Of a stretch of DNA of 32,000 nucleotides, positions 5,841 to 27,719 are shown piece after piece; the first letter of the stretch is position 1, and each line of letters opens with the position of its first letter. The position numbers were made by a program, and so were the translations under genes. The stretch lies in contig NZ_FUWK01000002.1 in NCBI RefSeq assembly GCF_900167395.1, positions 126,797 through 158,796 on the forward strand. The letters are read 5' to 3'. The notes under the pieces were generated by a model that did not search any database, had not been told where the DNA came from, and saw nothing but the letters and a program-made list of their open reading frames with translations. The stretch comes from Nitrosomonas europaea (lineage in GTDB: Bacteria > Pseudomonadota > Gammaproteobacteria > Burkholderiales > Nitrosomonadaceae).

Positions 5841-6551
5841 ATGAAACCCGTCGCAATTCTCAGGTTTTTCCCGATCGAAGGGCCCGGCTATTTTGCCACA
5901 TTTCTCAACCACCATCACATACCATGGCAACTGATCTGTCTGGATGAAGGAACGCCTCCGCCGAAAAATATGAACAAATACAGCGGCCTGGTATTGATGG
6001 GCGGGCCGATGAGCGTACATGATGATCTACCCTGGATCGGCTCGGTACTGTCACTCATCAGGCAAGCGACAAGTACCGATATTCCGGTACTGGGCCACTG
6101 CCTGGGTGGGCAGCTTTTATCAACCGCTCTGGGAGGTGTGGTAACAAACAATCCGATCAAGGAACTGGGCTGGGGACGCGTGGATGTCACTTCTTCATCC
6201 ATCGCGCATGACTGGTTTGGTACTGATCTCACGGAATTCGATGCCTTTCACTGGCACGGCGAAACTTTCAGCATACCGGCAAACGCAGTCAGGCTGCTAT
6301 CCAGCCCTTACTGCCCCAATCAGGCCTTTGCCCTGGGGATTCACCTGGGCCTGCAGTGTCATATCGAAATGACCGCCGAGATGGTAAAAATATGGTGTGA
6401 GGCAAATGCTGCCGAGCTGGTACAAAGCCGGGAAAGTCCCGCTGTCAGCAGCAGTGAAGAGATTCAGGCGAATCTCGATGACCGCATTGCTGCACTGCAA
6501 TCAATCGCAGATCGCCTGTACAAAAAATGGATTAAGGCATTGAAAAACTGA
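5841..6551 (+). CDS. Class-I glutamine amidotransferase (GATase1, GuaA-N-like)
   Basis: Nucleophile elbow GHCLGGQLL and catalytic His-Glu in LQCHIEM. AGGAAGG RBS lies 9 nt upstream of the ATG at 5841. The TTG at 5745 in the ORF track looks like an over-extension. Confidence 0.8.
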   Translation: MKPVAILRFFPIEGPGYFATFLNHHHIPWQLICLDEGTPPPKNMNKYSGLVLMGGPMSVHDDLPWIGSVLSLIRQATSTDIPVLGHCLGGQLLSTALGGVVTNNPIKELGWGRVDVTSSSIAHDWFGTDLTEFDAFHWHGETFSIPANAVRLLSSPYCPNQAFALGIHLGLQCHIEMTAEMVKIWCEANAAELVQSRESPAVSSSEEIQANLDDRIAALQSIADRLYKKWIKALKN

Positions 6552-6607
6552 TGGTCGCCACCAACACGCAACCATCAGCCCAAGGCATGTTCATGATTCG
6601 TACCGGT

Positions 6608-7462
6608 TCAGATGGCGATCTCGGCTCGCATTTTCTTCATGGCTTTTGCTTCGATCTGACGCACACGCTCAGCAGAAACGCCCAGCTCATCAGCCAGCTC
6701 ATGCAAGGTGGCAGCCTTGTCTTCCCGCAGCCAGCGTGCCTCGATGATACGGCGGCTGCGTTCATCCAGACTGTCCAGCGAATTTTTCAGCCGGGCGTGT
6801 GTCAGTCGCTCCAACTGCTCTTTTTCCAGCTCCCTGGAGGGATCGGATCCATCCGTCAGCCAGGCAATCGGGCTGAAATCATCTTCATCACTGTCCGTCA
6901 CCGGTTCCAGTGAAATATCCCGGCCGCTGAAACGTGTTTCCATCTCGACGACTTCCTCAGCTTTGACACCCAACTGTTCCGCCATCGAAGCCACTTCAGC
7001 CTGGCTCATCGTATCCAGCCCTTTTTTCATGCTGCGCAGATTGAAAAAAAGCTTTCTCTGCTGTTTGGTCGTGGCGATCTTGACCAGCCGCCAGTTACGC
7101 ATGATGAATTCATGAATTTCCGCCCTGATCCAGTGAATCGCAAAGGAAATCAGCCGGACACCCCGTTCAGGGTCAAACCGTCTGACAGCCTTCATCAGGC
7201 CGATATTACCCTCCTGTATCAAGTCAGCATGCGGCAGCCCATATCCCAGATAACCGCGTGCAATGGTAACCACCACGCGTAAATGGGAAAGCACCAGCTG
7301 ATGCGCTGCATTGACGTCACCCTCTTCTCGCATACGTTTAGCCAGGGAAGCTTCCTCTTCCCGGGATAAGACAGGAAAGCTGCTGGTCGCACGAATATAG
7401 CTGTCCAGATCACCGCCTGCCATCACCGGTAAAGCCATAATCTCATTCATGATTTTCTCCAT
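6608..7462 (-). CDS. rpoH: RNA polymerase sigma-32 (heat-shock sigma factor)
   Basis: Sigma-70 region 2 (DLIQEGNIGLMKAVRRFDP) and the diagnostic RpoH box (TTKQQRKLFFNLRSMKK). Region 4 HTH is TLHELADELGVSAERVRQIE. An alternative start at 7450 is preceded by GGAG. Confidence 0.93.
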   Translation of the reverse strand: MEKIMNEIMALPVMAGGDLDSYIRATSSFPVLSREEEASLAKRMREEGDVNAAHQLVLSHLRVVVTIARGYLGYGLPHADLIQEGNIGLMKAVRRFDPERGVRLISFAIHWIRAEIHEFIMRNWRLVKIATTKQQRKLFFNLRSMKKGLDTMSQAEVASMAEQLGVKAEEVVEMETRFSGRDISLEPVTDSDEDDFSPIAWLTDGSDPSRELEKEQLERLTHARLKNSLDSLDERSRRIIEARWLREDKAATLHELADELGVSAERVRQIEAKAMKKMRAEIAI

Positions 7463-7509
7463 TGATTTTCAGAATGTACTTGCGTGATTTGAAGCGAATA
7501 GACATATCC

Positions 7510-7534
7510 TAGCACTCTTAGTTCATGAGTGCTA
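7510..7534 (-). promoter_or_regulatory. Perfect 8-bp inverted repeat (TAGCACTC-N9-GAGTGCTA) in the rpoH upstream/leader region
   Basis: Read directly from the sequence. It lies 48-72 nt upstream of the rpoH ATG at 7462. Function unknown. Confidence 0.25.
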
Positions 7535-7736
7535 ATTTCATCAGTACCTGATTATCCCTCTTAACCGCATATTCACGCTGCTGCTCAATCAAAACAATCT
7601 CTCATATATTAAATTCAGATAAAGAAATCATTATTTATTATTTTTATAAATAAGAGATTATTGTTATCTTTGCTTCGCTCGAACGACGTCGAGAGCCATA
7701 AACCAATAAACCTACAACTATAAAACAGAGGCATAA

Positions 7737-9311
7737 ATGAAACACCGTACATGGATATGGCTTTATCTGATTACTCTCCCATCGCTGACAAACATGGTTC
7801 ATGCAAAAGAAACGCTTCCAGACAACCAGAATGGCCAGACAACAGCAGTCGATTCCGGTTCTGCAGCATCCAAGGAAGTAATTATACAAACTGCGGCCAA
7901 CCAGCAAACTGAATCGACCAAACCAACATTCATCGCTGGTAATGCACCCTCCAGTTTCTACCAGCGCGCGCGCAGTTACAGCACCCACCCGGAATCCGAT
8001 CCGCCCCGTTATGTTCGCACGCTGTCCAAAACGGGGATCGACGCTTTCAAAAATCTTTACTGGCTGGATGTCGGGTTGGATTACCGCGTACGTTATGAAC
8101 ATCGCCACAATGATATCCGGCGCTCACGTATCACCACGGATGACCCTGTTCTCCTGCGAACACGGGCTTATCTGGGTATCAAAGAAATCCTGGATCCTCT
8201 GCGCTTCGTCGTCGAATTTGAAGATGCACGCCGCTATAACGGTAAATTCCCTAAAGATAACCGCGACTGGAATGAATTCGAACTGATCCAGACCTATGGC
8301 GAACTCTATTTCAAAGATGCGCTGGGGCGAGATGACCTGGGTAATTATCGTCCTGTCAGAATCCGGGGTGGTCGCATGGCATGGGAAACGCTGGATCGGC
8401 GCTTACTGGGTAGTAATCAATGGCGCAACACTACCAATAATTTTGAAGGCTTCCGCGTTACACTCGGCCAGGAATCGAATGACTGGGAGTTCGATGCATG
8501 GGGAGTGCAACCGGTCATAAGACTGATAGACAAATTTGACCGGCGCGACAAAGGCCAGTGGTTTTATGGCGCAATCGGACATTTTCGTCAATGGTCAAAA
8601 ATAATCACCATTCAACCCTACTATATGGGGTTAATACAGGATGACGATGGTGGAACACGAGTCAAACGTGAAATCCACTCTCCTGCCATACGAGCCTATG
8701 GTGTTGTGCCCAACACTGAAGTCGATTTCGATCTCGGTGCCATTTATCAATTTGGCCGTGACGGTGGACAGAAAAAATCAGCACATGCCTATCTGCTCGA
8801 ATTCGGCTATACCTTCCAGCAGGCTGCCTGGAAGCCCCGCGTCAGTGCCTTTTACGGTTATGTAAGTGGTGATCGTGATCCTAACGATCGCACAAACAAC
8901 CGTTTTGAAAGATTCTTCGGTTTTGCACGCCCCTGGTCAGCTGATGACTACATCATTATGGAAAACATCCAGGCACCGAAAATCAAGGTAGAGTTCCAGC
9001 CACATCCCGACTTACAAATCGACGGAGGCTATAACGGCTTCTGGCTCGCCAGTAAGACTGACCGTTTCAACAACCTTCTCAACGGCAGTGGAAATAACCG
9101 TGATCGCAGCGGGAACAGTGGCAGCTTTATCGGGCATTCAGCCGATATTCGCGCCCGTTACAAGCTGACACCTCATATCAGTACCACACTAGGCTATTCA
9201 CACTGGTTCAACGGCGGATTCATAAAAAACCAGCAGTTGGCGGAACTGGGAGAAACCACTGCCGGGACGGATTTTTTCTATGTTGAAGTCGCTATCAGCG
9301 CATTCAAATAA
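7737..9311 (+). CDS. Outer-membrane porin of the alginate-export (AlgE-like) beta-barrel family. It is the first gene of the sulfate-uptake block.
   Basis: Signal peptide [23 protein letters not shown]. Motifs DYRVRYEHR and [10 protein letters not shown]...[10 protein letters not shown] are typical of the Alginate_exp family as I recall it. Alternating beta-strand pattern with an aromatic C-terminus (...VAISAFK). Confidence 0.65.
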
Positions 9312-9339
9312 CATCAACTTATCTATAAAAGGGAATCAA

Positions 9340-10347
9340 ATGAAATTCAATATATGGTTGTCAGTCGGATTACTGACGTTTGCTCTGGCAGGTGCCAGTC
9401 AGGCATTTGCTGACCGGACTCTTCTCAATGTTTCCTACGATCCGACACGCGAGTTGTATGAGGAATATAACCGCGAGTTCATCCGCTACTGGCAGGAAAA
9501 AACCGGGGAGAAAATTACTGTCAAACAGTCACATGGCGGCTCCGGCAAACAGGCACGTGCGGTCATTGACGGTGTGCCTGCAGATATAGTGACACTTGCC
9601 CTTGCTCATGACATTGACGCGATCAGCGAGCAATCGGGGCTGATCCCGGCAGAATGGCAGAAACGCTTACCCAACAACAGTTCGCCCTATCTCTCAACGA
9701 TCGTCCTGCTGGTACGCAAAGACAATCCCAAAGGAATCAGGGACTGGGATGATCTGATCAAACCGGGTGTCGCCGTCATAACGCCCAATCCGAAAACATC
9801 GGGTGGTGCACGCTGGAATTATCTGGCGGCGTGGGGTTTTGCACTGAAAAAATACGATGGCGATGAAGCAAAAGCACAAGAGTTCCTCACCCGACTTTAT
9901 AAGAATGTCTCAATACTTGATTCAGGGGCACGTGGATCAACCATCAATTTCATCCAGCGCGGCATAGGGGATGTTCTGATTTCCTGGGAAAACGAAGCTT
10001 TTCTGGCGCTCAAGGAATATGGCCCGGAGAAATTCGAAATAATCATTCCCTCGATCAGCATTCTTGCCGAACCCCCTGTCGCTGTCGTCGACAAGAATGT
10101 CGACAAACATGGCGTACGTAATATTGCCCAGGCCTACCTCGAGTACCTGTACGACAAAAAAGGGCAGGAAATTGCGGCACGCAACTTCTATCGACCGAGC
10201 GATCCGGAAATCGCCAAAAAATATGCTCATCAGTTCCCGGCAATCAATCTGTTTACGATCAATGAAGTATTTGGCGGCTGGCCGCAAGCCCAGAGCATCC
10301 ACTTCAAGGACGGCGGCCTGTTCGACAAAATCTATGTAAATCAATGA
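9340..10347 (+). CDS. sbp: Sulfate/thiosulfate ABC transporter periplasmic substrate-binding protein
   Basis: Signal peptide [41 protein letters not shown]...[24 protein letters not shown] closely parallels E. coli Sbp/CysP. The start is trimmed from 9280 to the ATG at 9340. Confidence 0.9.
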
Positions 10348-10405
10348 TCGATTCTGTATCCGGCACATTGATTGCTCATAACCTCAAACTCGAAAAGAAT
10401 CAGAA

Positions 10406-10711
10406 ATGACAGTACTGATAGTGGGTGGAGATTACATTGCATCTCTCAAACAGAGAATCACGGCACACGGCTATTCCCGTATAGAACACTGGAACGGTCG
10501 TAAAAAAGGGTTCAACAAGCGAGCACTGCCCGGCAGAACAAAGCTGGTCGTGATTATCTACGATTACGTCAGCCACAACCTTGCCAATTCAGTGAAAGAT
10601 CAGGCCAGCCGTATCGGGATCCCGATGATTTTCTGCCGTCATGCCATGCACGAAATCGACACGATCTTCGATGAGAAAAAAGCTGAAGAAAGTTGTTGCA
10701 ACTTTGTATAA
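10406..10711 (+). CDS. DUF2325-like small cytoplasmic protein
   Basis: The 101-aa ORF matches the pattern I associate with DUF2325: VLIVGG...(linker)...KLVVIIYDYVSHNLANSVKDQASRIGIPMIF. No TM segment or signal peptide. Confidence 0.55.
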   Translation: MTVLIVGGDYIASLKQRITAHGYSRIEHWNGRKKGFNKRALPGRTKLVVIIYDYVSHNLANSVKDQASRIGIPMIFCRHAMHEIDTIFDEKKAEESCCNFV

Positions 10712-10714
10712 GTA

Positions 10715-11734
10715 ATGAACAAGTCCAGTGAAGCAAGAAGTGCGCAGATCCCGTTGAAATGGATGAACGATTTACCCGCTTCTCTTGCTTCAATTCAGAT
10801 AGCTTCTTTGCTGGAGTTACAAATGCTGCCATCAACGTTAAAAACACTGGTACACGGTGATTATATGATTCGTACGATAGAACGCATTATCACAAGCACC
10901 GGTTTTTCCTTACAACACTCTGATAATGGCGAGATTACTGGCCTTTTTTACCATTGCAAGTTATCAAGCGCTTATCAACCTGTTTTTGAAGCTGCCCGGA
11001 ACAATATCATTGGACAAGAAGCTCGTATCCGCGCTGATTTAAATGGAAATGGAGAAATACAACTTTCTCCCTGGCATATATTCGCACTCGCCCCCGACGA
11101 TGAACAGCTCATCAAGCTGGATCGCCTCTGCCGAACGATTCATGCCCTCAATTTTCTTGACAATATTACTAACAAACAGATGAAGCTGTTCGTCAGCGTA
11201 CAGCCCCGTTTGCTGGAAAGTGTCAAGGATGATCATGGCAGCGCATTTGAGCAAATACTCGACATTATCGGAATACGTACCTCCAGAATCGTTATCGAGA
11301 TCCCAGTTGAAGCCAATCGTGACTGGCGGCTGCTGAAACGCGTGATCATGAACTATCGTGCACACGGGTATCTGATCTCAGTCAATTACAGCGGTACCAA
11401 TAATGACCGGATATCCGAACTTGGCAAGCTATATCCTAATGTCATACGTATTGATGCACGTGATCTGTTACGGCGTAGCGTACTGGATCCGTTGATAGTC
11501 ACTGCTCATAATCAAGGAGCAGATGTTCTGGTAGGCAACATAGAAACTTCATATCAACTGACAGATGCAATACACGCAGGTGCAGATCTGCTACAGGGAA
11601 ATTTCCTGGCCAGATATTCGCGTAAAGCCGACAACATGCTGACTCCCTTTTCCTGGCAGATACCAGACGAGCGGAATGGATACAGATTCGATAATGAATC
11701 ACTGCAGGAAAATCAACCTTACAGAAGCATATAA
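10715..11734 (+). CDS. Stand-alone degenerate EAL-domain protein (YdiV-like, predicted non-catalytic), paralog 1
   Basis: EAL-fold landmarks are present: YQPVF...GQEARIR, LDRLCR, IVIEIP, LLQGNF. Catalytic motifs are lost: DDFG becomes NYSG, the K of (I)KID becomes R, and EGVE becomes GNIE. An alternative start is the ATG at 10865. Confidence 0.6.
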   Translation: MNKSSEARSAQIPLKWMNDLPASLASIQIASLLELQMLPSTLKTLVHGDYMIRTIERIITSTGFSLQHSDNGEITGLFYHCKLSSAYQPVFEAARNNIIGQEARIRADLNGNGEIQLSPWHIFALAPDDEQLIKLDRLCRTIHALNFLDNITNKQMKLFVSVQPRLLESVKDDHGSAFEQILDIIGIRTSRIVIEIPVEANRDWRLLKRVIMNYRAHGYLISVNYSGTNNDRISELGKLYPNVIRIDARDLLRRSVLDPLIVTAHNQGADVLVGNIETSYQLTDAIHAGADLLQGNFLARYSRKADNMLTPFSWQIPDERNGYRFDNESLQENQPYRSI

Positions 11735-11824
11735 CCCGTTCTATTTACGAGACATCGAATCATGTACCCGAAAACAGCCTTGCATATAAAAACAGCGACA
11801 AACCATCTTGAAAGGAGCGCTTTC

Positions 11825-12613
11825 ATGAATAGAACCACTGCCAAGCCTTTTACCGTAATGGATGAGTTCGAATTGATCAAAGCTGCTACCGACTACTCGC
11901 TGGAACAGGATGAAAATGGCCGGATCAGTGGAAATTTCTACCATTGCAAACTGACCAGTGCCTTTCAGGTAATCCTCGATATTCATGAAAATAACATAAT
12001 TGGGCACGCAGCCTACATTCGCTCTGAATCAAATGGTGAAGTCTCGCTCTGGCCCTGGCAGGTATTTGCACTTGCTTCCAAAGATGAACAATTGATCGAC
12101 CTCGACCGCCTGTGCAGAGCAATTCACGCCCTGAATTATTTTAAGAAGAACTTTGACACCAACACTGGTCAGCTTTTCCTGAGTGTACATCCACGCCTGC
12201 TGAGCAGCATCCAGAATGAACACGGACGAACATTCAAAGATTTTCTGGATTTAACCGGAATCAGTACTTCACGGATCGTGATTGAAATACCGCCAGCCCT
12301 GAATCACGACTGGAAACTGCTGCAGAAACTGATCATTAACTACCGCTCATACGGTTATCAAATAGCCCTTAATTTCAGCAGTACCAACGGACACTGGTTA
12401 CTGGGAACAGATGATCTCCATCCGGACATCCTGATCGTGCAAGCACACGAATTATTACACTATCAGCTGAATGACTATCCGGAAGACAACAGCACCCGTG
12501 ATGCCGGCTTCCGCCTGCATGTCAGAAAAATCGAAACGCAAGAGCAGCTGACAGCGGCAAAGCAAGCGGGCGCACATTACCTGCAGGGTAACTTTCTAGG
12601 AAAAACAGTATGA
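11825..12613 (+). CDS. Stand-alone degenerate EAL-domain protein, paralog 2
   Basis: About 45% identical to the upstream paralog (FYHCKL.SA.Q...NNIIG, LDRLCR.IHALN, TSRIVIEIP, YLQGNF). The EAL glutamate is replaced (GHAAYIR), and the DDFG, K and EGVE motifs are lost. AGGAG lies 7 nt upstream of the ATG at 11825. Confidence 0.62.
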   Translation: MNRTTAKPFTVMDEFELIKAATDYSLEQDENGRISGNFYHCKLTSAFQVILDIHENNIIGHAAYIRSESNGEVSLWPWQVFALASKDEQLIDLDRLCRAIHALNYFKKNFDTNTGQLFLSVHPRLLSSIQNEHGRTFKDFLDLTGISTSRIVIEIPPALNHDWKLLQKLIINYRSYGYQIALNFSSTNGHWLLGTDDLHPDILIVQAHELLHYQLNDYPEDNSTRDAGFRLHVRKIETQEQLTAAKQAGAHYLQGNFLGKTV

Positions 12614-12678
12614 CTCACAACATGATCCCGGCAATCACCCAAAAGGATTTTTACAATCGAATAACAGGAGTCTGAATT

Positions 12679-13512
12679 TTGAGCACTTTCAAACAATACA
12701 GTGTACTACCAGGCTTCAATCTGGCACTGGGATTTACCCTGCTTTACCTGAGTCTGGTCGTACTGATTCCTCTGTCGGCAGCATTCATCCACAGCGCGAA
12801 ACTGACCTGGCCGGAATTTTGGAGTACGGTGACTGCACCCCGAGTCGTCGCGTCCTATCGGCTGACATTTGGAGCCTCGTTTGCAGCCGCAGTGGTTAAT
12901 ACATTTTTCGGATTGCTGGTAGCCTGGGTACTAGTACGTTACCCGTTTCCGGGTAAGCGCCTGGTCGATGCCCTGATCGATCTGCCTTTCGCACTACCCA
13001 CCTCCGTTGCCGGTATCACGCTCACCGCAATCTATGCGGGTAACGGCTGGCTCGGTCAGTATCTGGAACCATTGGGAATCAAGGTCGCCTTCACCCCGGT
13101 CGGTGTTTTCGTGGCACTGACATTCATCGGGTTGCCGTTCGTCGTTCGCACCGTTCAACCTGTACTGGAAGATATCGAGAAAGAACTGGAAGAAGCTGCT
13201 GCCATGCTGGGCGCAACACGCTGGCAGACTTTCCGGTACGTTATTTTCCCGGCAGTTCTACCTGCACTGACCACCGGTTTTGCACTGGCTTTTGCCCGCG
13301 CCATCGGAGAATACGGCTCCGTTATTTTTATTGCCGGCAATATCCCGATGGTCTCGGAGATCACGCCATTACTCATCATCACCAAACTCGAACAATATGA
13401 TTACGCTGGTGCAACGGCCATTGCCGTCGTGATGCTGGTGATTTCATTCATTCTTCTGCTGATCATCAACCTGCTGCAGTGGTGGGTTCGTCATCGCAGC
13501 ATAAAGGCATAA
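12679..13512 (+). CDS. cysT: Sulfate ABC transporter permease CysT (CysU)
   Basis: Six-TM permease with the EAA loop [24 protein letters not shown] start with AGGAG 8 nt upstream. Order sbp-...-cysT-cysW-cysA. Confidence 0.9.
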
Positions 13513-13521
13513 AGGAAAATC

Positions 13522-14400
13522 ATGACTGCCGTCCCGTTACTCCAAACCTCTCCGGCACCGCACAAGGTGGTTACGCAGGAATCACCGTGGGCGCGCTGGA
13601 CACTCATCCTGCTGGCCCTCTCCTTCCTGTCGCTTTTTCTTTTACTGCCCCTGGTAGCAGTTTTCTTTGAGGCACTGAGAAAAGGATGGGAAGTTTATCT
13701 TGCAGCCATCACTGAACCCGATGCCCTCGCCGCCATCCGCCTGACCCTGATTGCAGCCGCCATCGCCGTACCGCTCAACCTGATATTCGGTATCGCAGCC
13801 GCCTGGGCAATTGCCAAATTTGAGTTCCGCGGCAAAAGTATCCTCACCTCCCTGATCGATCTGCCATTCTCCGTCTCTCCCGTCGTCGCCGGATTGATTT
13901 ACGTACTGATATTCGGCCTGCAGGGCTGGATCGGTCCATGGCTGCGGGAGCATGATCTTTCCATCATTTTTGCCGTGCCCGGCATCGTTCTGGCAACGAT
14001 TTTCGTGACTGTGCCGTTCATTGCACGTGAGCTGATTCCACTGATGCAGGCACAGGGAAGCGAGGAGGAAGAAGCCGCCATCATTCTGGGCGCAAGTGGC
14101 TGGCAGACACTGTGGTACGTCACGCTTCCCAACATCAAATGGGGATTGCTGTATGGCACCATTCTCTGCAATGCCCGAGCAATGGGCGAGTTTGGCGCCG
14201 TCTCGGTCGTTTCCGGACATATTCGCGGCCTGACCAACACTCTTTCCCTGCACGTCGAAATTCTCTACAACGAATACAACTTTGTTGCTGCTTTTGCAGT
14301 GGCTTCCTTGCTGGCATTACTTGCACTGATTACGCTGGTACTGAAAACGCTGGTTGAAGCAAAAGTGGCACAACAAACCTCCAGAGGAAATCATTCATGA
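13522..14400 (+). CDS. cysW: Sulfate ABC transporter permease CysW
   Basis: Paralogous permease with the EAA loop [26 protein letters not shown] overlap with cysA. Confidence 0.9.
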
Positions 14401-15485
14401 CTATCGAAATACACGATCTCTCCAAGCAATTCGGCTCTTTCACCGCACTGAACGACATCAATCTGAAAGTCAACCCGGGAGAGCTGCTCGCGCTGCTGGG
14501 TCCTTCCGGCTCCGGTAAAACCACTCTGCTGCGGGTCATTGCCGGCCTTGAAACAGCTGATTCCGGTCAAGTGCTGTTCAACGAGGAAGATTCAACCGAC
14601 AAACACATTCGTGATCGGCATGTCGGATTTGTCTTCCAGCATTACGCACTTTTTCGCAATATGACCATTTTCGAGAACGTAGCATTCGGCTTGCGTGTAC
14701 GCCCTAGAAAACAGCGCCCCAACGCTCCGGAAATCAATCACCGCGTGACTGAACTGCTGCAACTGGTGCAACTCGACTGGCTGGCAGATCGTTATCCGCA
14801 CCAGCTTTCCGGGGGGCAACGCCAGCGCATCGCATTGGCACGGGCACTGGCAGTCGAACCCAGTGTTCTGTTACTGGATGAGCCATTCGGTGCGCTCGAT
14901 GCCAAAGTGCGCAAGGAGCTGCGTGCCTGGCTGCGCAAACTGCACGATGACATGCACATTACCAGTGTCTTCGTGACACATGATCAGGAAGAAGCACTGG
15001 AAGTGGCAGATCGGATCGTCGTCATGAACCGGGGCCGTATCGAACAAATCGGCACTCCCGATGAAGTCTATGAGAAACCGGCCAACCCGTTCGTATATGA
15101 ATTTCTTGGACACGTCAATCTGTTCCACGGGCGTGTGCATCAGGGCCATGCATGGATTGGCGATCTCGAAGTCGATGCCCCGGAGTACTCAGAAGCAGAA
15201 GATCTCAGTGCCATCGCCTATGTGCGGCCGCATGACATCGAAGTGGACCGGACATTAAACGGTGAACCGGCTCTGGCTGCTCATATCGTCCATATTCTCG
15301 CTATCGGACCGGTCGTACGGCTGGAGCTGGCAGGCAAAGACAATCAAAGTACAAACAGTATTTATGCCGAGATCAGCAAGGAGCGTTTTCGTGAGTTGCA
15401 ACTGGCAAGAGGAGATCAGGTTTTCATCAAGCCGCGCAAGCTCGATCTGTTTCCAAACCATGCCCAAAACGGATCGATACATTGA
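14397..15485 (+). CDS. cysA: Sulfate/thiosulfate import ATP-binding protein CysA
   Basis: Walker [10 protein letters not shown], signature [15 protein letters not shown], Walker B LLLDEPF, plus a CysA-type C-terminal regulatory domain. Confidence 0.93.
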
Positions 15486-16423
15486 TGACAGCCTCTGAAA
15501 AAACGGTTTTGCCGGAATTATCCTATCTGCGCACGACAATCAGCAACGTTGTCATTGAGTTGCGTAATTTACGCGAGACTTCACTGGAGCATCGGCAGAG
15601 ACTCAACAATCCGCCCAAACTTCCCTCACGCAAAACGCTGGCGGACATCATCGACAAATTGAGTGCCGCATTGTTTCCCAACCGCCTGGGTCAACCCGAC
15701 CTGACCGGAGAAAGTATCGATTACTTCGTAGGGTACACACTGGATACCGCCCTGCGCGATCTGTCGGCAGAGGTAATCCGGGAGCTCCATTTTGCTTCCG
15801 GGCTCGAGGCCGTCAGCCATACGGTTCGAGAGCGGGCGGTGGAAATCACGCATGTATTTGCCGGGCAGTTGCCTGCCATACGCCATATTCTGGACAGTGA
15901 CATTCGTGCAGCCTATGAAGGCGATCCGGCTGCACACAATATCGACGAGGTACTGGTCTGCTACCCAGGGATCACCGCCATCATCCATTACCGGCTGGCA
16001 CATGAACTGCACAAGCTGGGAGTCCCTCTGATTGCACGCATGATTTCAGAAATCGCGCATTCTCTGACCGGCATAGAAATACATCCCGGAGCCCGGATTG
16101 GTGACAGTTTCTTCATAGATCACGGAACCGGAGTCGTCATCGGGGAAACGGCCATCATCGGTCGTAAAGTACGCCTGTATCAGGCAGTCACTCTAGGCGC
16201 CAAACATTTCCCGGTAGATGAACAAGGTGCCTTGATCAAGGGAAATCAGCGTCATCCTGTCGTCGAAGACGATGTCGTGATCTACGCGGGAGCGACCATC
16301 CTCGGGCGTATCACTATCGGACATGGCTCCACGATAGGCGGAAATGTCTGGCTGACACACGACATCCCCCCCGGGAGTCATATCACCCAGGCGCAGATGC
16401 GCCATGAAAAAGTACCCGGTTAA
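15485..16423 (+). CDS. cysE: Serine O-acetyltransferase, long (EpsC-like) form
   Basis: SATase N-domain (AAYEGDPAA...VLVCYPGITAIIHYRLAHEL) and hexapeptide repeats (IHPGARIGDSFFIDHGTGVVIGETAIIG). The ATG at 15485 overlaps the cysA stop (TGATG). Confidence 0.85.
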   Translation: MTASEKTVLPELSYLRTTISNVVIELRNLRETSLEHRQRLNNPPKLPSRKTLADIIDKLSAALFPNRLGQPDLTGESIDYFVGYTLDTALRDLSAEVIRELHFASGLEAVSHTVRERAVEITHVFAGQLPAIRHILDSDIRAAYEGDPAAHNIDEVLVCYPGITAIIHYRLAHELHKLGVPLIARMISEIAHSLTGIEIHPGARIGDSFFIDHGTGVVIGETAIIGRKVRLYQAVTLGAKHFPVDEQGALIKGNQRHPVVEDDVVIYAGATILGRITIGHGSTIGGNVWLTHDIPPGSHITQAQMRHEKVPG

Positions 16424-16531
16424 TTTCAATTGCATATCTTTATTTCGTATATGCGAATAACGCCGGATTATTCAGAATAGTTCGGTGACACAAAACGCTG
16501 TTTCTTCCCAACAATCTTCAGGAGAATTTAA

Positions 16532-17449
16532 ATGACTGATATTCATCAGGCACAGACCGCATTAGGTGATGTTGCGGCCCGTACACTTGCCAACGCGACT
16601 AAAACCATTCCCATGATGGGCACGATCACGCCACGGTGGCTAACTCATCTGCTGCAGTGGGTTCCGGTCGAGGCGGGTATCTACCGCGTCAATAAAGTCA
16701 AAGATCCTGACGAGGTTGAAGTCGACTGCTCCAACAAGGATGAGCGCGAATTACCTGCCACTTACGTAGATTATGAGGAATGGGGGCGTGAGTATGTACT
16801 CAGTGCAGTCAATACCGTGCTGGATGTCCACACTCGCGTCGCCGATCTTTACAGCAGCCCGCACGATCAGACCCGCGAGCAACTCCGGCTGATCATTGAA
16901 ACCATCAAGGAACGCCAGGAAAAAGAACTGGTGAACAACAAGGAATACGGTTTGCTCAACAATGTTGCCAGAAACATGAAGATCAAAGCGCGTACAGGCG
17001 CACCCACCCCGGATGATCTGGATGATCTGATCTCACTCGTCTGGAAGGAACCGGCCTTCTTTCTGGCACATCCCAAAGCCATTGCGGCATTTGGTCGGGA
17101 GTGCACACGGCGTGGCGTACCTCCTCCCACCGTATCGATGTTCGGCTCACAATTCCTTACCTGGCGCGGGCTACCCCTCATTCCATGCGACAAGATAGGC
17201 ATTACCGGAGGGAAAACAAGTATCCTGCTGCTACGCACGGGTGAAAGCCGGCAAGGGGTGGTAGGACTCTATCAGCCGGGACTGCAAGGCGAACAGGGCA
17301 TGGGATTATCTTTACGTTTCATGGGGATCAACCATAAGGCCATCGCTTCTTATCTGGTTTCACTGTATTGCTCACTGGCCGTGTTGACTGAAGATGCACT
17401 CGGTGTTCTGGAAAATGTCGAAGTGGGTAAATACCATGAATACAAATGA
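16532..17449 (+). CDS. Family 2A encapsulin nanocompartment shell protein (HK97 fold, no cNMP-binding insertion)
   Basis: 305 aa. The blocks ITPRWLTHLLQWVPVEAGIYRVNKV, HTRVADLYSSPHDQTREQLRLIIETIKERQEKEL, GAPTPDDLDDLISLVWKEPAFFLAHPKAIAAFGRECTRRGVPPPTVSMFGSQFLTWRGLPLIPCDK and the C-terminal KYHEYK match my memory of SrpI-type family 2A shells. AGGAG RBS. Flanked by cysE and a cysteine desulfurase, as in the canonical operon. Confidence 0.85.
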   Translation: MTDIHQAQTALGDVAARTLANATKTIPMMGTITPRWLTHLLQWVPVEAGIYRVNKVKDPDEVEVDCSNKDERELPATYVDYEEWGREYVLSAVNTVLDVHTRVADLYSSPHDQTREQLRLIIETIKERQEKELVNNKEYGLLNNVARNMKIKARTGAPTPDDLDDLISLVWKEPAFFLAHPKAIAAFGRECTRRGVPPPTVSMFGSQFLTWRGLPLIPCDKIGITGGKTSILLLRTGESRQGVVGLYQPGLQGEQGMGLSLRFMGINHKAIASYLVSLYCSLAVLTEDALGVLENVEVGKYHEYK

Positions 17450-19061
17450 GTTCAACCAGTGGATAGATAAAGTATCGGGTGAGGCATCCGCTTATGTACC
17501 CGATATTGAGTCACTGACGCAAATGGGCAATGCGTTATTCAACACTCCTCCGCTTTCCCGATCGACCGAACCGCCTGCTTTGACGGTTCCCGGTGCTGAA
17601 GTCAGTCATTCACGCCCGGCCACCGGGTCGAGCTACCCTTCGACCATTCCACTGCCTTGCGAAGCGGAACTGAAAGCCCTGTTCACACCGAATCAGTATC
17701 GTGCGCCGGCTCATATCAGCCTGTCTGATTCAGATCATTCCGGTCATCCACCGTGGGAATCATCATTTTATTTCCTCGATGAAGGGATAGCACCCGAGCG
17801 CCATGACCGGGCAGCACAAATTCCTGCTGCCCATCCCCCCTTCGATATCCATGCGATCCGGCGTGATTTCCCCATTTTACAGGAACACGTCAATGGGCAT
17901 TCCCTGGTCTGGCTGGACAATGCGGCAACGACACAGAAACCTCAGGCCGTCATCGATCGGCTGACCTATTTCTACACGCACGAAAATTCCAATATTCACC
18001 GGGCAGCACATGAACTGGCAGCCCGTGCGACAGATGCGTATGAGGAATCGAGGAATAAGGTTCGCCAGTTTCTCAACGCCGCATCCACCGATGAAATCAT
18101 CTTTCTGCGGGGAACGACGGAAGCGATCAACCTCGTTGCCCAAAGCTGGGGGCGGCAGCATATCAGCGCCGGAGACGAGATCATCATTACCTGGCTGGAA
18201 CATCATGCCAATATCGTTCCATGGCAGATGCTGTGTAATGAAACGGGCGCCCGATTGCGCGTGGTACCGGTCGATGAGGATGGACAGGTTTTGCTGGAAG
18301 AATATCAAAAGCTGCTCAACTCACACACCAGACTCGTTGCATTCTCACAGGTTTCAAATGCACTCGGGACCATCACACCTGCCAGACAAATGGTGGAAAT
18401 GGCACACCGCGTCGGTGCACGTGTACTGGTCGATGGAGCACAATCGGTTTCACACATGCGGGTCGACGTCCAGCAACTCGATTGTGACTGGTTCGTTTTT
18501 TCCGGGCATAAGGTATTCGGCCCGACCGGTATTGGTGTTCTATATGGCAAGACAGAACTGCTCAACGACACACAGCCATGGCAGGGTGGCGGCAATATGA
18601 TTCAAGATGTCACTTTCGAAAAGACAGCTTATCACGGTGCCCCTGCCCGGTTCGAGGCGGGGACCGGTAATATTGCCGATGCAGTAGGACTGGGCGCCGC
18701 AATCGACTATGTGGAACGTATCGGTCTTGAAAATATCAGCCGCTACGAGCACGAATTGATGACCTATGCTACCGGGTGCCTAAAATCGATAGCAGGACTG
18801 CGACTCATTGGTACCGCACCAGATAAAGCAGGTGTACTGTCTTTTACCCTGAAGGATTTCTCTACGGAAGAAGTCGGTACTGCTCTCAATCGTGAAGGTA
18901 TTGCGGTACGTGCCGGTCATCATTGTGCCCAGCCTATTCTGCGCCGCTTCGGCGTGGAAAGTACCGTCCGCCCCTCGCTGGCTTTTTATAACACGTATAC
19001 GGATATCGACAGGCTGGCCGCTGCCATAGACCGTATCCGGGGAAAGAAAAACGCATTCTGA
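17436..19061 (+). CDS. SufS/CsdA-type (group II) cysteine desulfurase with a ~135-aa disordered N-terminal extension (predicted encapsulin cargo)
   Basis: PLP-lysine motif FSGHKVFGPTGIGVLYG and catalytic Cys in RAGHHCAQP. LDNAATTQKP begins the fold-type-I core. The N-terminal 135 aa are Pro/Ser rich and low complexity. The start is ambiguous (17394, 17415 or 17436) and every option overlaps the shell gene's 3' end. Confidence 0.88.
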   Translation: MNTNEFNQWIDKVSGEASAYVPDIESLTQMGNALFNTPPLSRSTEPPALTVPGAEVSHSRPATGSSYPSTIPLPCEAELKALFTPNQYRAPAHISLSDSDHSGHPPWESSFYFLDEGIAPERHDRAAQIPAAHPPFDIHAIRRDFPILQEHVNGHSLVWLDNAATTQKPQAVIDRLTYFYTHENSNIHRAAHELAARATDAYEESRNKVRQFLNAASTDEIIFLRGTTEAINLVAQSWGRQHISAGDEIIITWLEHHANIVPWQMLCNETGARLRVVPVDEDGQVLLEEYQKLLNSHTRLVAFSQVSNALGTITPARQMVEMAHRVGARVLVDGAQSVSHMRVDVQQLDCDWFVFSGHKVFGPTGIGVLYGKTELLNDTQPWQGGGNMIQDVTFEKTAYHGAPARFEAGTGNIADAVGLGAAIDYVERIGLENISRYEHELMTYATGCLKSIAGLRLIGTAPDKAGVLSFTLKDFSTEEVGTALNREGIAVRAGHHCAQPILRRFGVESTVRPSLAFYNTYTDIDRLAAAIDRIRGKKNAF

Positions 19062-19070
19062 ACACCATGC

Positions 19071-19103
19071 GGTACAGATAACAGGCCTGCATAATTTCTG
19101 TAC
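19071..19103 (+). terminator. Hairpin after the desulfurase gene (GGTACAGA-N17-TCTGTACC), no U-tract
   Basis: An 8-bp perfect stem starts 10 nt after the stop at 19061. The large loop and missing T-run make terminator function uncertain. Confidence 0.25.
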
Positions 19104-19155
19104 CACATCCATTCCTCCACGCCACCACACACGTATCGACAACAGGTATAAACAC

Positions 19156-20073
19156 GTGAATTTTCAGCAACTCCGCATCATCAGTGAAACAATTCGGCAG
19201 AATTACAATTTGACGGAAGTGGCCAATGCCCTGTTTACCTCGCAATCCGGGGTCAGCAAGCATATCAAAGATCTGGAAGATGAACTGAACATCGATCTGT
19301 TCATCCGAAAGGGCAAACGCCTGACCGGACTGACCGCACCGGGCAAGGAACTGGTCAAAATCGTTGACCGCATTCTGCTGGATACCAGAAATATCAAACG
19401 ACTGGCAGAACAGTTCAGTCAGCATGACCAGGGTGAACTGACCGTGGCTACCACCCACACCCAGGCACAATACGCCTTACCGGATGTTGTTAGGCAATTC
19501 AAGGAAATATTCCCAAAAGTACATCTCGTACTTCACGAATCCAGTCCCGGCGAGATCGTATCCATGCTGCTGAATGGCCAGGCGGATATTGGCATCGCAA
19601 CCGAAGCGCTGGAGAGTACTTCTGAACTGGTATCGTTTCCGTACTATACCTGGCATCATGCGATCATCGTACCGGCAGAACATCCGCTGCAATCGATACA
19701 CCCTCTCACACTCGAAGCTGTTGCGCAATTTCCGATCATTACCTATCACAAGGGTTTTACCGGGCGTTCCCGAATCGATCAGGCGTTCTCTCGCGCGGAA
19801 TTGACACCCAATATCGCCATGTCCGCTCTCGATGCAGATGTCATCAAAACCTATGTCACTCTGGGTATGGGAATTGGTATCGTTGCATCTGTCGCATTTA
19901 CACCGGAACGGGATACAAAACTGATCAAACTGGATGGTTCTCATCTGTTCGAGCAGAATACCACCTGCATATCCATACGACGTAACCACTATCTGCGCGG
20001 ATACGCCTACCGGTTCATCGAGCTGTGCATCCCTTCACTGAGCAGAGATACCATCTGCTCAGAAATACAATAG
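19156..20073 (+). CDS. cysB: LysR-family transcriptional regulator of the cysteine regulon (CysB/Cbl type)
   Basis: GTG start. Collinear with E. coli CysB along its whole length: QQLR.I...NLT.VA..L.TSQ.G.SK.I..LEDEL, TVATTHTQA.YALP.V...F...P.V.L.LH..SP..I, TGRS..D.AF.RA.LTP.I...A.DADVIKTYV.LG.G.GI.AS.A. Confidence 0.88.
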   Translation: MNFQQLRIISETIRQNYNLTEVANALFTSQSGVSKHIKDLEDELNIDLFIRKGKRLTGLTAPGKELVKIVDRILLDTRNIKRLAEQFSQHDQGELTVATTHTQAQYALPDVVRQFKEIFPKVHLVLHESSPGEIVSMLLNGQADIGIATEALESTSELVSFPYYTWHHAIIVPAEHPLQSIHPLTLEAVAQFPIITYHKGFTGRSRIDQAFSRAELTPNIAMSALDADVIKTYVTLGMGIGIVASVAFTPERDTKLIKLDGSHLFEQNTTCISIRRNHYLRGYAYRFIELCIPSLSRDTICSEIQ

Positions 20074-20085
20074 AACGACTACTGA
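19990..20085. repeat. Direct repeat copy 1: the functional 3' end of cysB plus 12 nt downstream
   Basis: TATCTGCGCGGATACGCCTACCGGTTCATCGAGCTGTGCATCCCTTCACTGAGCAGAGATACCATCTGCTCAGAAATACAATAGAACGACTACTGA recurs at 21181-21272 with a few substitutions and two small indels. Confidence 0.85.
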
Positions 20086-20382
20086 TGCGAGATTGGCATG
20101 AGTCCATATTCCAGCGTTTCAAATGACTGATTGGTGCCGTCGTATAGCGTAAACTCTTACAGTTCGGCGCGTTCAGAACTTCATGGATGGTTGTCCGGCT
20201 GACACAGAAGCGTTCCGCCAGCTGTGTTATTTTCCAGAGTCAAATTTAATAAAGATGCAAAATTTCCTGATGATCCGGTAAAGTCAGGCATGTGCATCTA
20301 TGTACGTTCATCTGCAGTATTTTTCTGAATACTGTAAATAACACTAGAAATTCTTATATATAAAAGAAGAAGGGGAAATTGC

Positions 20383-21144
20383 GTGTTTAAAAGAGTCGGT
20401 ATTTTTGTTGCGCTCGTTACATTGAGTTTGATATTTAATCAACCCGCCACGGCTGGCAGAACCGTAGAGGATTTTCAGGTTTGGGGAAATATTACTGCAC
20501 TTGGTAATTTTGGCTTCGTCAATCCGGGCAACCCCGATTTGAAGAAATTCAGATGGTGGATGGAAGGACAGGGACGATTCGGTAATGATTCCTCACAGTT
20601 TACGCAGGCTATCATCCGCCCGGGTTTGGGCTATGCGATCACTGATAAAATCATCATCTGGGCGGGCTATGCCTGGATTCCCTCGGATGAACCGCTGGTA
20701 CCAAAGTCAGGGCTCCCGTTCGATGAGCATAGAATCTGGCAGCAGGTAACCTGGGCGGATGAATTTTCTTTCGGTAAATTGTCATTGCGCAGTCGCTTTG
20801 AGCAGCGCTTCTTTGATCACAATGCACCTGTTTCTGGTAGTGACGATGTGGCTTACCGTTTCCGTCAGCTGGTAAAACTGGCGATTCCAGTCGCCATGAT
20901 CGATCCCAATCTTACTTTTATCATTCAGAACGAATTGTTCATCGGGTTGAACACGGTTAGTAACCCGGGCTTTATTTCTCGCGGCTTCGATCAGAATCGC
21001 GCTTTTGTGGGTCTGGGTTACAAAGTTCATCAGAATGCGACCGTTGAACTGGGTTATATGAACCAATTCATTGACAGGCGCCATAATCCTCGTCCTGATC
21101 AAATGATGCACAATTTTGCAGTTAACCTGTTTCTGAATTTCTAA
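20383..21144 (+). CDS. Small outer-membrane beta-barrel protein (DUF2490-like)
   Basis: GTG start with a GAAGGGGA RBS. Signal peptide MFKRVGIFVALVTLSLIFNQPATA. Alternating amphipathic strands and a C-terminal ...AVNLFLNF. The DFQVWGN...RWWMEGQGRF pattern is recalled for DUF2490. Confidence 0.5.
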   Translation: MFKRVGIFVALVTLSLIFNQPATAGRTVEDFQVWGNITALGNFGFVNPGNPDLKKFRWWMEGQGRFGNDSSQFTQAIIRPGLGYAITDKIIIWAGYAWIPSDEPLVPKSGLPFDEHRIWQQVTWADEFSFGKLSLRSRFEQRFFDHNAPVSGSDDVAYRFRQLVKLAIPVAMIDPNLTFIIQNELFIGLNTVSNPGFISRGFDQNRAFVGLGYKVHQNATVELGYMNQFIDRRHNPRPDQMMHNFAVNLFLNF

Positions 21145-21180
21145 TATGCAAAGTCATTAATCCAGAGAGGTAATCACTAT

Positions 21181-21272
21181 TATTTGCGCGGATGCCTGCC
21201 AGTTCATCGAGCTGTGCATCCCTTCACTGAGCAGAGATCATCTGCTCAGAAATACAGCAGAACGATTACTGA
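21181..21272. repeat. Direct repeat copy 2: a decayed, out-of-frame copy of the cysB 3' end
   Basis: Aligns to 19990-20085. Differences are a 1-nt deletion (GATACGCC vs GAT-GCC), a 2-nt deletion (GAGATACCATC vs GAGA--TCATC), and TAG changed to CAG at the stop position. Homology ends at ...ACTGA on both copies. Confidence 0.85.
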
Positions 21273-21616
21273 AACCAGCTGGTCTTTTCCGGATTCTCGT
21301 TCGGAGTACGATTATCTGCATTGTCCGAGGTACGGTTATCTGTATCAGAAGGCCAGGAAGAAAATGGAAACGGGCGTTGTTCGCTGTTGAATGTCAGGAA
21401 CAGACTGATCTGGTAATCATACATTGCCAGCTGGCGGCCCAGTTTGAGCAGTCGGGTATTGGCCTGCCCGGTCAGGACAGTCGATCCGAGCTGAAACAGG
21501 GCCAGCAGCACGATCAGAAATTTCACACTCCCCTGGATAAACATGAACAGCAACATAAAAAGTACACGAATCCAGGTTTCAGTACTCTGCAATCGTTGTT
21601 TTACTTCGTCATTCAT
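21266..21616 (-). CDS. Small membrane protein, DUF4389-like
   Basis: Two hydrophobic helices (WIRVLFMLLFMFIQGSVKFLIVLLALFQL) followed by QISLFLTFNSEQRPFPFSSWP, as recalled for DUF4389. An alternative start lies at 21631. Confidence 0.5.
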   Translation of the reverse strand: MNDEVKQRLQSTETWIRVLFMLLFMFIQGSVKFLIVLLALFQLGSTVLTGQANTRLLKLGRQLAMYDYQISLFLTFNSEQRPFPFSSWPSDTDNRTSDNADNRTPNENPEKTSWFQ

Positions 21617-26658: not shown

Positions 26659-27678
26659 ATGGAGCTCGAGTTCGGTTGTGGATTCCCCACACATGATTCT
26701 CATCCATTGCACCATCTGAAAAGGTCGTGCAAAACATTATCGACTGGAATAGCCTGGTCGATGGCCACCCTCGCATTGCTGCTACTGTTTTCCGGAACCA
26801 CAGCGGCAGCAGGAAATTTACACAACATCGTCATATATGCTGAAAGACTGCCCGGTAACCTCTATGGATACCGCATGGCCGGACACATAGTCAGACAACC
26901 GGATGGAACACAGATTGATATCACAAACCGTTATGTCACCAGTACCGCCACAATTCCGGGGCCGACCATCATTCTGGACGAAGGAGATATAGCCGACATC
27001 GAACTCCTGCATCAGTTCGATCCGCATACCCCCTTCCAGGAGCATGTCAGCCTGCATGTCCATGGTGTGCATTACGATCGGGAAAGTGACGGCACGCTGA
27101 AATACATCAATCTGTACAAGGATGAGAGTGCTGTTCCTCACCTCTCCTACGTTTATCGCTGGAATGCCGCACCCGGTACAGCCGGAACCTGGCCCTACCA
27201 TGACCACAACATGGAGAACCACAACGGAGCAGAGGACAAAGGTTTGTTCGGTGCTCTTATCGTTCGTTCAGCTGCGGAAGCCAGACAGGCCAAAACCAGC
27301 AGCAATCGGGCTCATGTTTCACCGAATGTTGCCAAGGATTACGTGTTCTACCTGGGTGACGATGCCTTCTGGGCCATGGAAATCGATAACGCCACCGGCA
27401 AACAGACTGCTCTGGGTACGAACCCTCCACTTACTGCACAGCGCAATACCAATGTCAGATTCCATCTGATTGCACTCGGTACCAACTTTCATCAGTTCGA
27501 ACTACCGAAGTATCAGTGGATCGATCCAGGCACACGCAACACGATCAACCGGAAAGTCCTCGGGCCACTCGAAAAGCACGTCTTTACAGTCAAAGCGACC
27601 CATTCCTCTCGCTACCAGGATACTGCCTTCGCCAGCAGATTACTGGGGATGCGGGGTGACTTCATCATCACCCGTTGA
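26659..27678 (+). CDS. Secreted two-cupredoxin-domain multicopper-oxidase-like protein. Domain-1 trinuclear-cluster histidines are intact; the domain-2 copper ligands are lost.
   Basis: AGGAG RBS lies 8 nt upstream. The signal-like segment is WSMATLALLLLFSGTTAAAG. HVHG (27055-27066) and WPYHDH (27196-27207) are present. The positions of HxxHxH and HCHxxxHxxxxM read NFHQFELPKYQW and AFASRLLGMRG. Confidence 0.75.
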   Translation: MELEFGCGFPTHDSHPLHHLKRSCKTLSTGIAWSMATLALLLLFSGTTAAAGNLHNIVIYAERLPGNLYGYRMAGHIVRQPDGTQIDITNRYVTSTATIPGPTIILDEGDIADIELLHQFDPHTPFQEHVSLHVHGVHYDRESDGTLKYINLYKDESAVPHLSYVYRWNAAPGTAGTWPYHDHNMENHNGAEDKGLFGALIVRSAAEARQAKTSSNRAHVSPNVAKDYVFYLGDDAFWAMEIDNATGKQTALGTNPPLTAQRNTNVRFHLIALGTNFHQFELPKYQWIDPGTRNTINRKVLGPLEKHVFTVKATHSSRYQDTAFASRLLGMRGDFIITR

Positions 27679-27719
27679 TCGCGCACATATTGATCTGTTT
27701 CTCAAATCAAGGAAAAAAA

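Follow-up and report, generated by a model that had tools for sequence, protein, structure and literature searches.

Does Nitrosomonas europaea possess a protein compartment in which sulfur is stored, and are the genes for it switched on together with the sulfate-uptake genes that lie beside them? The question is raised by the genes at 15485-19061 of a 32,000-nt stretch of its genome (contig NZ_FUWK01000002.1, positions 126,797 to 158,796 of the forward strand; hereafter the window, from whose first letter positions are counted). The original prediction had placed here a family 2A encapsulin shell with a cysteine desulfurase as cargo, and all of the genes that it named are present at or near the positions it gave them. 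We propose that these genes form a standard desulfurase-encapsulin operon of family 2A and of the AT-Enc-CD type, that this operon lies in a co-expressed block of twelve genes, that the desulfurase borne in the shell would store sulfur, and that a CysB-family regulator would control the block under sulfur limitation. We give this reading as a whole a probability of about 0.8. The features on which it is built, as assigned from sequence, are:

15485 to 16423, + strand: serine O-acetyltransferase (SAT) of the EpsC/SrpH type, 312 aa (NF041874, 171 bits against a cut-off of 150; exact match to CAD84486)
16424 to 16531, + strand: spacer of 108 nt between the SAT and shell genes, with two dyads and a strong Shine-Dalgarno sequence
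16532 to 17449, + strand: predicted family 2A encapsulin shell (SrpI-like, HK97 fold), 305 aa, CAD84485 (NF041162, PF19307, 6X8M, 8T6R)
17436 to 19061, + strand: predicted encapsulin cargo cysteine desulfurase of the SufS type, 541 aa, NE0573 / CAD84484 (NF041166, PF00266, 8KG1)
17436 to 17840, + strand: putative cargo-loading N-terminal domain of the desulfurase, ~135 aa (two motifs; Pro/Ser/Ala-rich composition)

The open reading frame (ORF) at 16532-17449 is identified as a family 2A encapsulin shell by its profile matches and by its matches to PDB sequences, which bears out the original prediction. Against the family 2A model NF041162 (encap_f2a) the protein scored 527.9 bits (cut-off 380), with residues 11-304 of 305 aligned to positions 1-295 of the 295 in the model, and PF19307 (SrpI-like), the only domain found in it, scored 354.7 bits against a threshold of 22.8 (E=2.6e-106). 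Its best matches among PDB sequences were the shells of Synechococcus elongatus SrpI (6X8M; E=5e-150), with 219 of 300 residues identical (73%) in an ungapped alignment, and of Acinetobacter baumannii (8T6R; E=2.8e-148). This closeness to solved shells predicts an HK97-type fold and assembly into a T=1 60-mer. The family 2B model NF041163 (430 bits) aligned to the protein only over model positions 210-449, its C-terminal half. The HK97-type shell domain of solved family 2B encapsulins with terpenoid cargo (9BJE, 9BHU, 9BIX) also aligned (E=1e-84 to 2e-92), but those shells are of ~470 aa, contain an inserted cyclic nucleotide (cNMP)-binding domain and have terpenoid gene neighbours, whereas the N. 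europaea shell, at 305 aa, has no such insertion. The mycobacterial MMP-I shells (9KSL, 8WOL, 8WON; E=2e-132) are family 2A homologues, more distant in sequence and found in an actinobacterial context; from them derives the legacy name "Major membrane protein I", which UniProt keeps for the N. europaea shell (NE0574).

PF19307 and the HK97 fold are common to phage capsids, and a weak integrase-like match (E=0.0018) lies far upstream at 737-2722, which would suit a remnant prophage capsid that had come to lie beside sulfur genes by chance. That origin is barely conceivable. Profile scans of the window ORFs found no terminase, portal, protease or tail genes, the neighbours all being cellular, and the GC content of the shell gene is similar to that of the neighbouring genes. 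Furthermore, the family 2A equivalog model is passed and the pairing of shell and cargo is conserved over hundreds of loci from many taxa.

The original prediction also had a desulfurase following the shell gene in an overlapping frame. The enzyme and the overlap both stood, but the start had to be moved. The longest cargo ORF runs from 17394 to 19061, and a start at 17394 was rejected in favour of the ATG at 17436: the 541-aa product from 17436 is the one called independently on four public contigs, CAD84484 is exactly this 541-aa sequence, and the position of the ATG is conserved. Of 78 related loci from many taxa, 67 place this ATG exactly 11 nt ahead of the shell stop, and 9 of the remaining 11 keep it inside a longer shell tail. 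With the start at 17436, the overlap between shell and cargo genes is 14 nt (ATGAATACAAATGA) rather than 56 nt. The C-terminus of the shell, Y-[H/Y]-[E/D]-Y-K, is coded with CAT or TAT followed by G, preserving the cargo ATG, and the conservation of this ATG within the last shell codons suggests that the translation of the two genes is coupled and that this coupling is itself conserved.

The cargo protein scored 884.5 bits against NF041166, the model for family 2A cargo cysteine desulfurases (cut-off 800), and 570.7 bits against the SufS model TIGR01979 (cut-off 475); it also matched PF00266 (E=1e-148), and its nearest desulfurase structure was 8KG1 (E=4e-185). It contains SGHK at residues 356-359 (18501-18512) and GHHCA at residues 494-498 (18915-18929), which we take to be the pyridoxal phosphate (PLP) lysine motif and the motif of the catalytic, persulfide-forming cysteine, respectively. 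The domain preceding the catalytic domain is rich in Pro, Ser and Ala, with a TOP-IDP value of 0.18 compared to 0.05 for the catalytic domain, and we judged it to be disordered from its composition and from the variability of its length among relatives. Since that length ranges from 69 to 469 aa in 75 relatives (median 213), the ~135 aa of N. europaea is short but not unusual. Within it, LTQMGNALF (17514-17540) and SSFYFLDEG (17760-17786) correspond to LARLANEFFS and AASPYYFLDG, the two motifs reported in most SrpI-associated desulfurases (Nichols et al. 2021, PMC8049743). The gene adjacent to the shell gene appears, in other words, to encode a cargo enzyme whose N-terminus is a disordered loading domain with the conserved motifs.

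A different reading of these two genes is already in print and in the databases: NE0573 has been treated as an ordinary sufS of iron-sulfur (Fe-S) cluster biogenesis (PMC11024918), with NE0574 a membrane protein according to its UniProt name. The catalytic domain does match SufS models and SufS structures strongly. An ordinary SufS would not, however, be expected to pass the cargo-specific model, to carry ~135 extra N-terminal residues that include both encapsulin-loading motifs, or to have a start embedded in the shell gene at a conserved position; no sufBCD or sufE genes were found in profile scans of the window ORFs, and the supposed membrane protein shows 73% identity to a soluble T=1 shell of known structure. 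We regard this reading as very improbable, and both it and the prophage remnant are effectively excluded.

The arrangement upstream of the shell was also as predicted, with a SAT gene of the EpsC type (NF041874) directly upstream at a distance of 108 nt, giving the order SAT, shell, desulfurase. SAT and rhodanese genes have been described as the main accessory genes of such systems (Andreas and Giessen 2021), and of the four operon types defined by Benisch et al. 2024 (PMC10836720), SAT, shell and cargo without a rhodanese fit AT-Enc-CD. The C-terminus of the SAT (16400-16423) reads ...MRHEKVPG and has no terminal isoleucine. As CysE docks into CysK through a C-terminal isoleucine, the SAT of this locus may not form the cysteine synthase complex. 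No match to Pfam SATase_N was obtained in the ~137 residues at its N-terminus.

Much of this is established. Family 2, its structure, cargo loading by the N-terminal domain and induction by sulfate starvation were reported by Nichols et al. 2021 (PMC8049743). Benisch et al. 2024 (PMC10836720) showed ~10-fold induction under sulfur limitation and the accumulation within loaded shells of crystalline elemental sulfur that is protected from glutathione. The physiological role, which the original prediction had called open, is therefore no longer fully so, being answered in part by this elemental-sulfur storage. The exact N. europaea proteins are also labelled already: the SAT, shell, cargo and regulator are exact matches to N. 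europaea ATCC 19718 proteins CAD84483-CAD84486, for which RefSeq gives the names family 2A encapsulin shell, family 2A cargo cysteine desulfurase, serine O-acetyltransferase EpsC and CysB family regulator. The identification was correct and its context is real but recurrent (see below). With the family described and the proteins labelled, the scientific gain is small.

What N. europaea adds is the setting of the operon among the following genes:

7737 to 9311, + strand: outer-membrane porin of the Alginate_exp family, first gene of the same-strand block (PF13372, E=1e-107; also called in loci L081/L083)
9340 to 10347, + strand: sulfate/thiosulfate-binding protein Sbp, 335 aa (NF008022, 519 bits against a cut-off of 288; start as chosen by gene callers)
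10406 to 10711, + strand: DUF2325 protein, 101 aa (PF10087, 48.1 bits against a cut-off of 33.6; beside sbp in relatives too)
10715 to 11734, + strand: stand-alone EAL-like protein 1, with degenerate catalytic motifs (PF00563, 127.5 bits)
11762 to 12613, + strand: stand-alone EAL-like protein 2, more degenerate (PF00563, 67.8 bits)
12679 to 13512, + strand: cysT, sulfate ABC permease (TIGR02139, 428 bits against a cut-off of 246)
13522 to 14400, + strand: cysW, sulfate ABC permease (TIGR02140, 415 bits against a cut-off of 329)
14397 to 15485, + strand: cysA, sulfate ABC ATPase (TIGR00968, 398 bits against a cut-off of 343; PF17850, CysA_C_terminal)
19067 to 19108, + strand: predicted hairpin between the cargo gene and cysB, with 12-nt arms and no T-run (-13.4 kcal/mol, z=-2.0)
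19156 to 20073, + strand: predicted CysB-family LysR-type regulator, GTG start, NE0572 / CAD84483 (NF009327, 444.1 bits against a cut-off of 402)

Eleven genes, the porin gene first and the cargo gene last, share one strand, and the intervals between them range from -14 to 108 nt: cysW and cysA overlap by 4 nt (ATGA), and the SAT start overlaps the cysA stop (TGATG). The sbp ORF is longest from 9280, and gene callers choose 9340. The twelfth gene, cysB, starts 94 nt after the cargo gene, so that the module is, as had been predicted, directly upstream of a predicted regulator of the CysB family. The earlier picture of a same-strand porin-sbp-cysTWA-cysE block was right as to strand but incomplete, as the DUF2325 gene and the two EAL-like genes between sbp and cysT had been overlooked.

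These twelve genes, from cysB to the porin gene, match the twelve locus tags NE0572-NE0583, which were up-regulated together under low-dose ionising radiation in a 2024 RNA-seq study of N. europaea (PMC11024918). In that study NE0572 is labelled CysB-like, NE0573 sufS (Fe-S assembly) and NE0575 SAT, with no mention of an encapsulin; the assignments of NE0574 and of NE0576-NE0583 to genes were made here by counting tags. Since its reading of NE0573 as an ordinary SufS missed the shell (NE0574 by position), its conclusions could be re-read. In our literature searches these locus tags were cited only in that paper, nothing was found on N. europaea together with "major membrane protein I", and no paper was found that mentioned an encapsulin and CysB together.

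Taken with the tight or overlapping spacing on one strand, the RNA-seq data support co-regulation of the module with sulfate uptake, as does recurrent synteny. Relatives of the shell are encoded at 578 genome loci or more; using the window proteins as tblastn queries, we compared the best 80 of these and, for flanking genes, the 47 whose flanks extended for 5 kb or more in each direction, scoring neighbours within 10 kb. In 62 of the 80 loci, the gene immediately preceding that of the shell was the SAT gene. Sulfate-transporter genes were near the module in 34 of the 47 full-flank loci and a CysB-like gene in 15. The context had been put forward as the feature that stood out, and this did not hold: transporter and LysR neighbours recur, and they have been tabulated for family 2a shells in Supplementary file 2 of Nichols et al. 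2021 (BPD_transp_1 37.9%, ABC_tran 29.8%, HTH_1-LysR 26.6%; PMC8049743).

Within Nitrosomonas, the module has been rearranged repeatedly yet stays in the sulfate-uptake block. In the window and in loci L001 and L002, shell and cargo genes are at the 3' end, after the SAT gene. In the N. oligotropha lineage the order is porin, sbp, DUF2325, EAL, shell, cargo, cysT, cysW, cysA, SAT, with gaps of at most 98 nt, and shell and cargo genes thus lie between the EAL gene and cysT. Arrangements other than that of the window are found in L004-L009 (for example L005, 5902-16583), the order in L008 being sbp-EAL-shell-cargo-SAT-cysB. In the Methylophilaceae the module is divergent from sbp-EAL-cysTWA, and another Nitrosomonas genome (L085) has porin-sbp-DUF2325-EAL-cysTWA and no encapsulin module. 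With positions this varied, in or beside sulfate-uptake operons, the module looks like an add-on, and this argues for selection for co-expression.

On this basis we propose the following. The module would be the 3' part of a twelve-gene block transcribed together, and the 108-nt gap ahead of the shell gene may contain an additional promoter. The strong Shine-Dalgarno sequence AGGAGA (16520-16525) would drive translation of the shell, and the cargo start, buried in the region of the shell stop, would be translated at a low and coupled rate; such a pairing fits a high ratio of shell to cargo. By homology to the tested systems, 60 copies of the 305-aa protein would assemble into a T=1 shell of ~24-25 nm, loaded with desulfurase through the disordered domain and its LTQMGNALF and SSFYFLDEG motifs. 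The encapsulated enzyme would take sulfur from L-cysteine, leaving L-alanine, and lay it down inside the shell as poly-persulfide or elemental sulfur protected from cytosolic reductants, and the compartment would bank or buffer cysteine sulfur when uptake overshoots. O-acetylserine, the product of SAT, is the cysteine precursor and also the source of the CysB co-inducer N-acetylserine. Since SAT supplies it, sulfur limitation could lead the regulator next to the module to turn on the block.

Of the steps in this mechanism, the one that involves CysB is the weakest, and several observations weigh against the proposal. The regulator passes the CysB-family subfamily model NF009327 alone, scoring 375 bits against the CysB equivalog (cut-off 436) and 426 bits against the Cbl equivalog (cut-off 491). 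The hairpin at 19067-19108 separates the cargo gene from cysB, which may therefore be transcribed separately; relatives seem, judged by eye and without folding, to have different inverted repeats after the cargo gene. The sole expression data found for N. europaea concern low-dose radiation and not sulfur limitation. On the side of the cargo, NF041166 aligned only from model position 188, and the N-terminal domain has ~135 aa compared to ~225 aa in the two studied systems, that of S. elongatus being one of them. No rhodanese match was obtained in profile scans of any window ORF. Lastly, dyad 1 of the 108-nt spacer (described next), searched for in the window with up to 2 mismatches, gave 3 matches where 1.9 were expected from shuffles, and the differently arranged Nitrosomonas loci (L004-L009) had no common dyad ahead of their shell genes.

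The spacer holds two dyads, GCATAT-N11-ATATGC at 16432-16454, ~100 nt before the shell start and with the T-N11-A geometry of LysR-type sites, and GAATAA-N7-TTATTC at 16455-16473, ~77 nt before it. Both are kept in position in L001, the closest relative, and as RNA the spacer folds with z=-2.6. The dyads could be LysR-type sites or RNA hairpins, and the 108-nt spacer is likewise a candidate for an internal promoter or operator or for a pair of RNA hairpins. Dyad 1 was rejected as a repeated operator, since it occurs singly and is not enriched over shuffles; because it is not repeated beyond chance in the window, the operator reading is only a candidate. Scans of 6500-21500 for sigma-70 promoters (9 sites compared to 17.5 in shuffled controls) and for intrinsic terminators (14 compared to 13.2) were uninformative on operon boundaries. 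A search of the window at Rfam gathering thresholds found no RNA family, and an alignment of the regions upstream of the porin gene showed only a short conserved AT-rich stretch.

Several of these observations could also mean that the block, or the shell and cargo genes from a promoter of their own in the 108-nt gap, answers mainly to oxidative or redox stress or to cysteine toxicity and not to CysB-mediated starvation, with the LysR protein being a specialised paralogue or not the regulator of the module at all. Induction by ionising radiation, the conserved dyads, the hairpin before cysB and the sub-threshold equivalog scores of the regulator would all be compatible with this. Oxidative stress, on the other hand, raises the demand for cysteine and so triggers the cys regulon, and the radiation response involved the whole block, transporter and CysB-like genes included. 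Cysteine detoxification under redox stress has been raised as a role (Benisch et al. 2024, PMC10836720), but sulfur limitation induces both of the homologous systems that have been studied, and in the N. oligotropha lineage the shell and cargo genes are inside the transporter operon. We consider control by redox stress improbable, and retain control by the CysB-family regulator under sulfur limitation.

What the compartment does with its sulfur is a separate matter. Since the studied homologues are induced in starvation, when storage seems paradoxical, it may instead be a reactor that mobilises sulfur, passing persulfide to acceptors for Fe-S clusters or thio-cofactors rather than keeping a long-term store of elemental sulfur. 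This was one of two models in Nichols et al. 2021 (PMC8049743), and encapsulation raises desulfurase activity. However, A. baumannii shells were seen to contain elemental sulfur in crystalline form, at a level responsive to sulfur supply in vivo, the fivefold pore of ~6 Å excludes protein acceptors, and the N. europaea operon has no rhodanese gene that could provide an acceptor. Mobilisation is in our view unlikely, while still deserving serious consideration, and storage as elemental sulfur is the role that we adopt.

Both studied systems share the core of the N. europaea locus and differ in its surroundings. The S. elongatus genes are plasmid-borne and have a different regulator, CysR, whereas the N. 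europaea locus is chromosomal, joined to a sulfate ABC-transporter block and accompanied by a CysB-family LysR regulator. Alike in S. elongatus PCC 7942 SrpI and CyD (6X8M/6X8T; PMC8049743) are the shell, the SufS-type cargo with a disordered N-terminal loading domain and both motifs, a linked SAT gene and a link to sulfur starvation. The A. baumannii 118362 encapsulin (8T6R; PMC10836720) has the same SAT-shell-desulfurase core, and the mechanism proposed here for N. europaea, including starvation induction and crystalline sulfur, was adopted from it by homology. Its operon is a four-gene R-AT-Enc-CD with a rhodanese, in contrast to the AT-Enc-CD of N. europaea, and Benisch et al. 2024 describe no linkage to a transporter or CysB. 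The nitrifier N. europaea has been studied well, and its encapsulin genes lie among twelve co-regulated genes that include one for a CysB-family regulator; it would therefore be a convenient organism in which to test the control of desulfurase-encapsulins.

The pair of DUF2325 and degenerate EAL-like genes is the least understood element of the locus. EAL-like protein 1, whose best PDB relative is YkuI (2BAS), has the motifs EAR, VNYSG, RID and GNIE, and EAL-like protein 2 has AAY for EAL, LNFSS for DDFGT, IVQ and RKIE; both have S for N. We assessed these motifs by eye, using the raw sequences and an alignment to YkuI, and took EAL, N, DDFG, K and EGVE as the reference residues. The EAL domain of cyclic di-GMP (c-di-GMP) phosphodiesterases is present (PF00563), but its catalytic and metal-binding residues are not intact, and since all of these motifs are degenerate the two proteins are probably not active phosphodiesterases. 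The DUF2325 and EAL-like genes have a GC content of 0.45-0.46, compared to 0.49-0.54 in their neighbours. The DUF2325-EAL pair also occurs in the Nitrosomonas sulfate operon without an encapsulin (L085, 9601-10876) and after a czcCBA-like RND efflux operon in L087 (9553-10852), and sbp-EAL-cysTWA recurs in the Methylophilaceae. We found no literature on an association of DUF2325 or EAL proteins with sulfate operons.

It can be speculated that all twelve genes make up a self-reinforcing unit of acquisition and buffering, in which SAT feeds the CysB co-inducer, the transporter imports sulfate, the encapsulated desulfurase banks the overshoot as elemental sulfur, and the DUF2325/degenerate-EAL pair is an undescribed regulatory or sensing component. 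We hold this extended scheme to be doubtful. If it were true, the DUF2325/EAL pair could couple a signal resembling a second messenger to ion transport and sulfur storage.

Downstream of cysB, at 20383-21144, is a gene for a DUF2490 protein with a signal-peptide-like N-terminus and a C-terminal Phe, and so resembling an outer-membrane barrel. The Nitrosomonas locus without an encapsulin (L085) likewise has a DUF2490 gene (13912-14502), immediately next to cysA, suggesting another conserved neighbour of sulfate operons. Further along, at 26659-30458, two adjoining genes encode multicopper-oxidase domains, and the product of the second (927 aa) joins cupredoxin-like and beta-propeller repeat matches. 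At the other end of the window, the ORF at 737-2722 encodes 661 aa with weak matches only (GNVR and the Phage_integrase match given above), and it is followed at 2742-5572, on the opposite strand, by a DUF3482 GTPase / DUF2868 gene pair.

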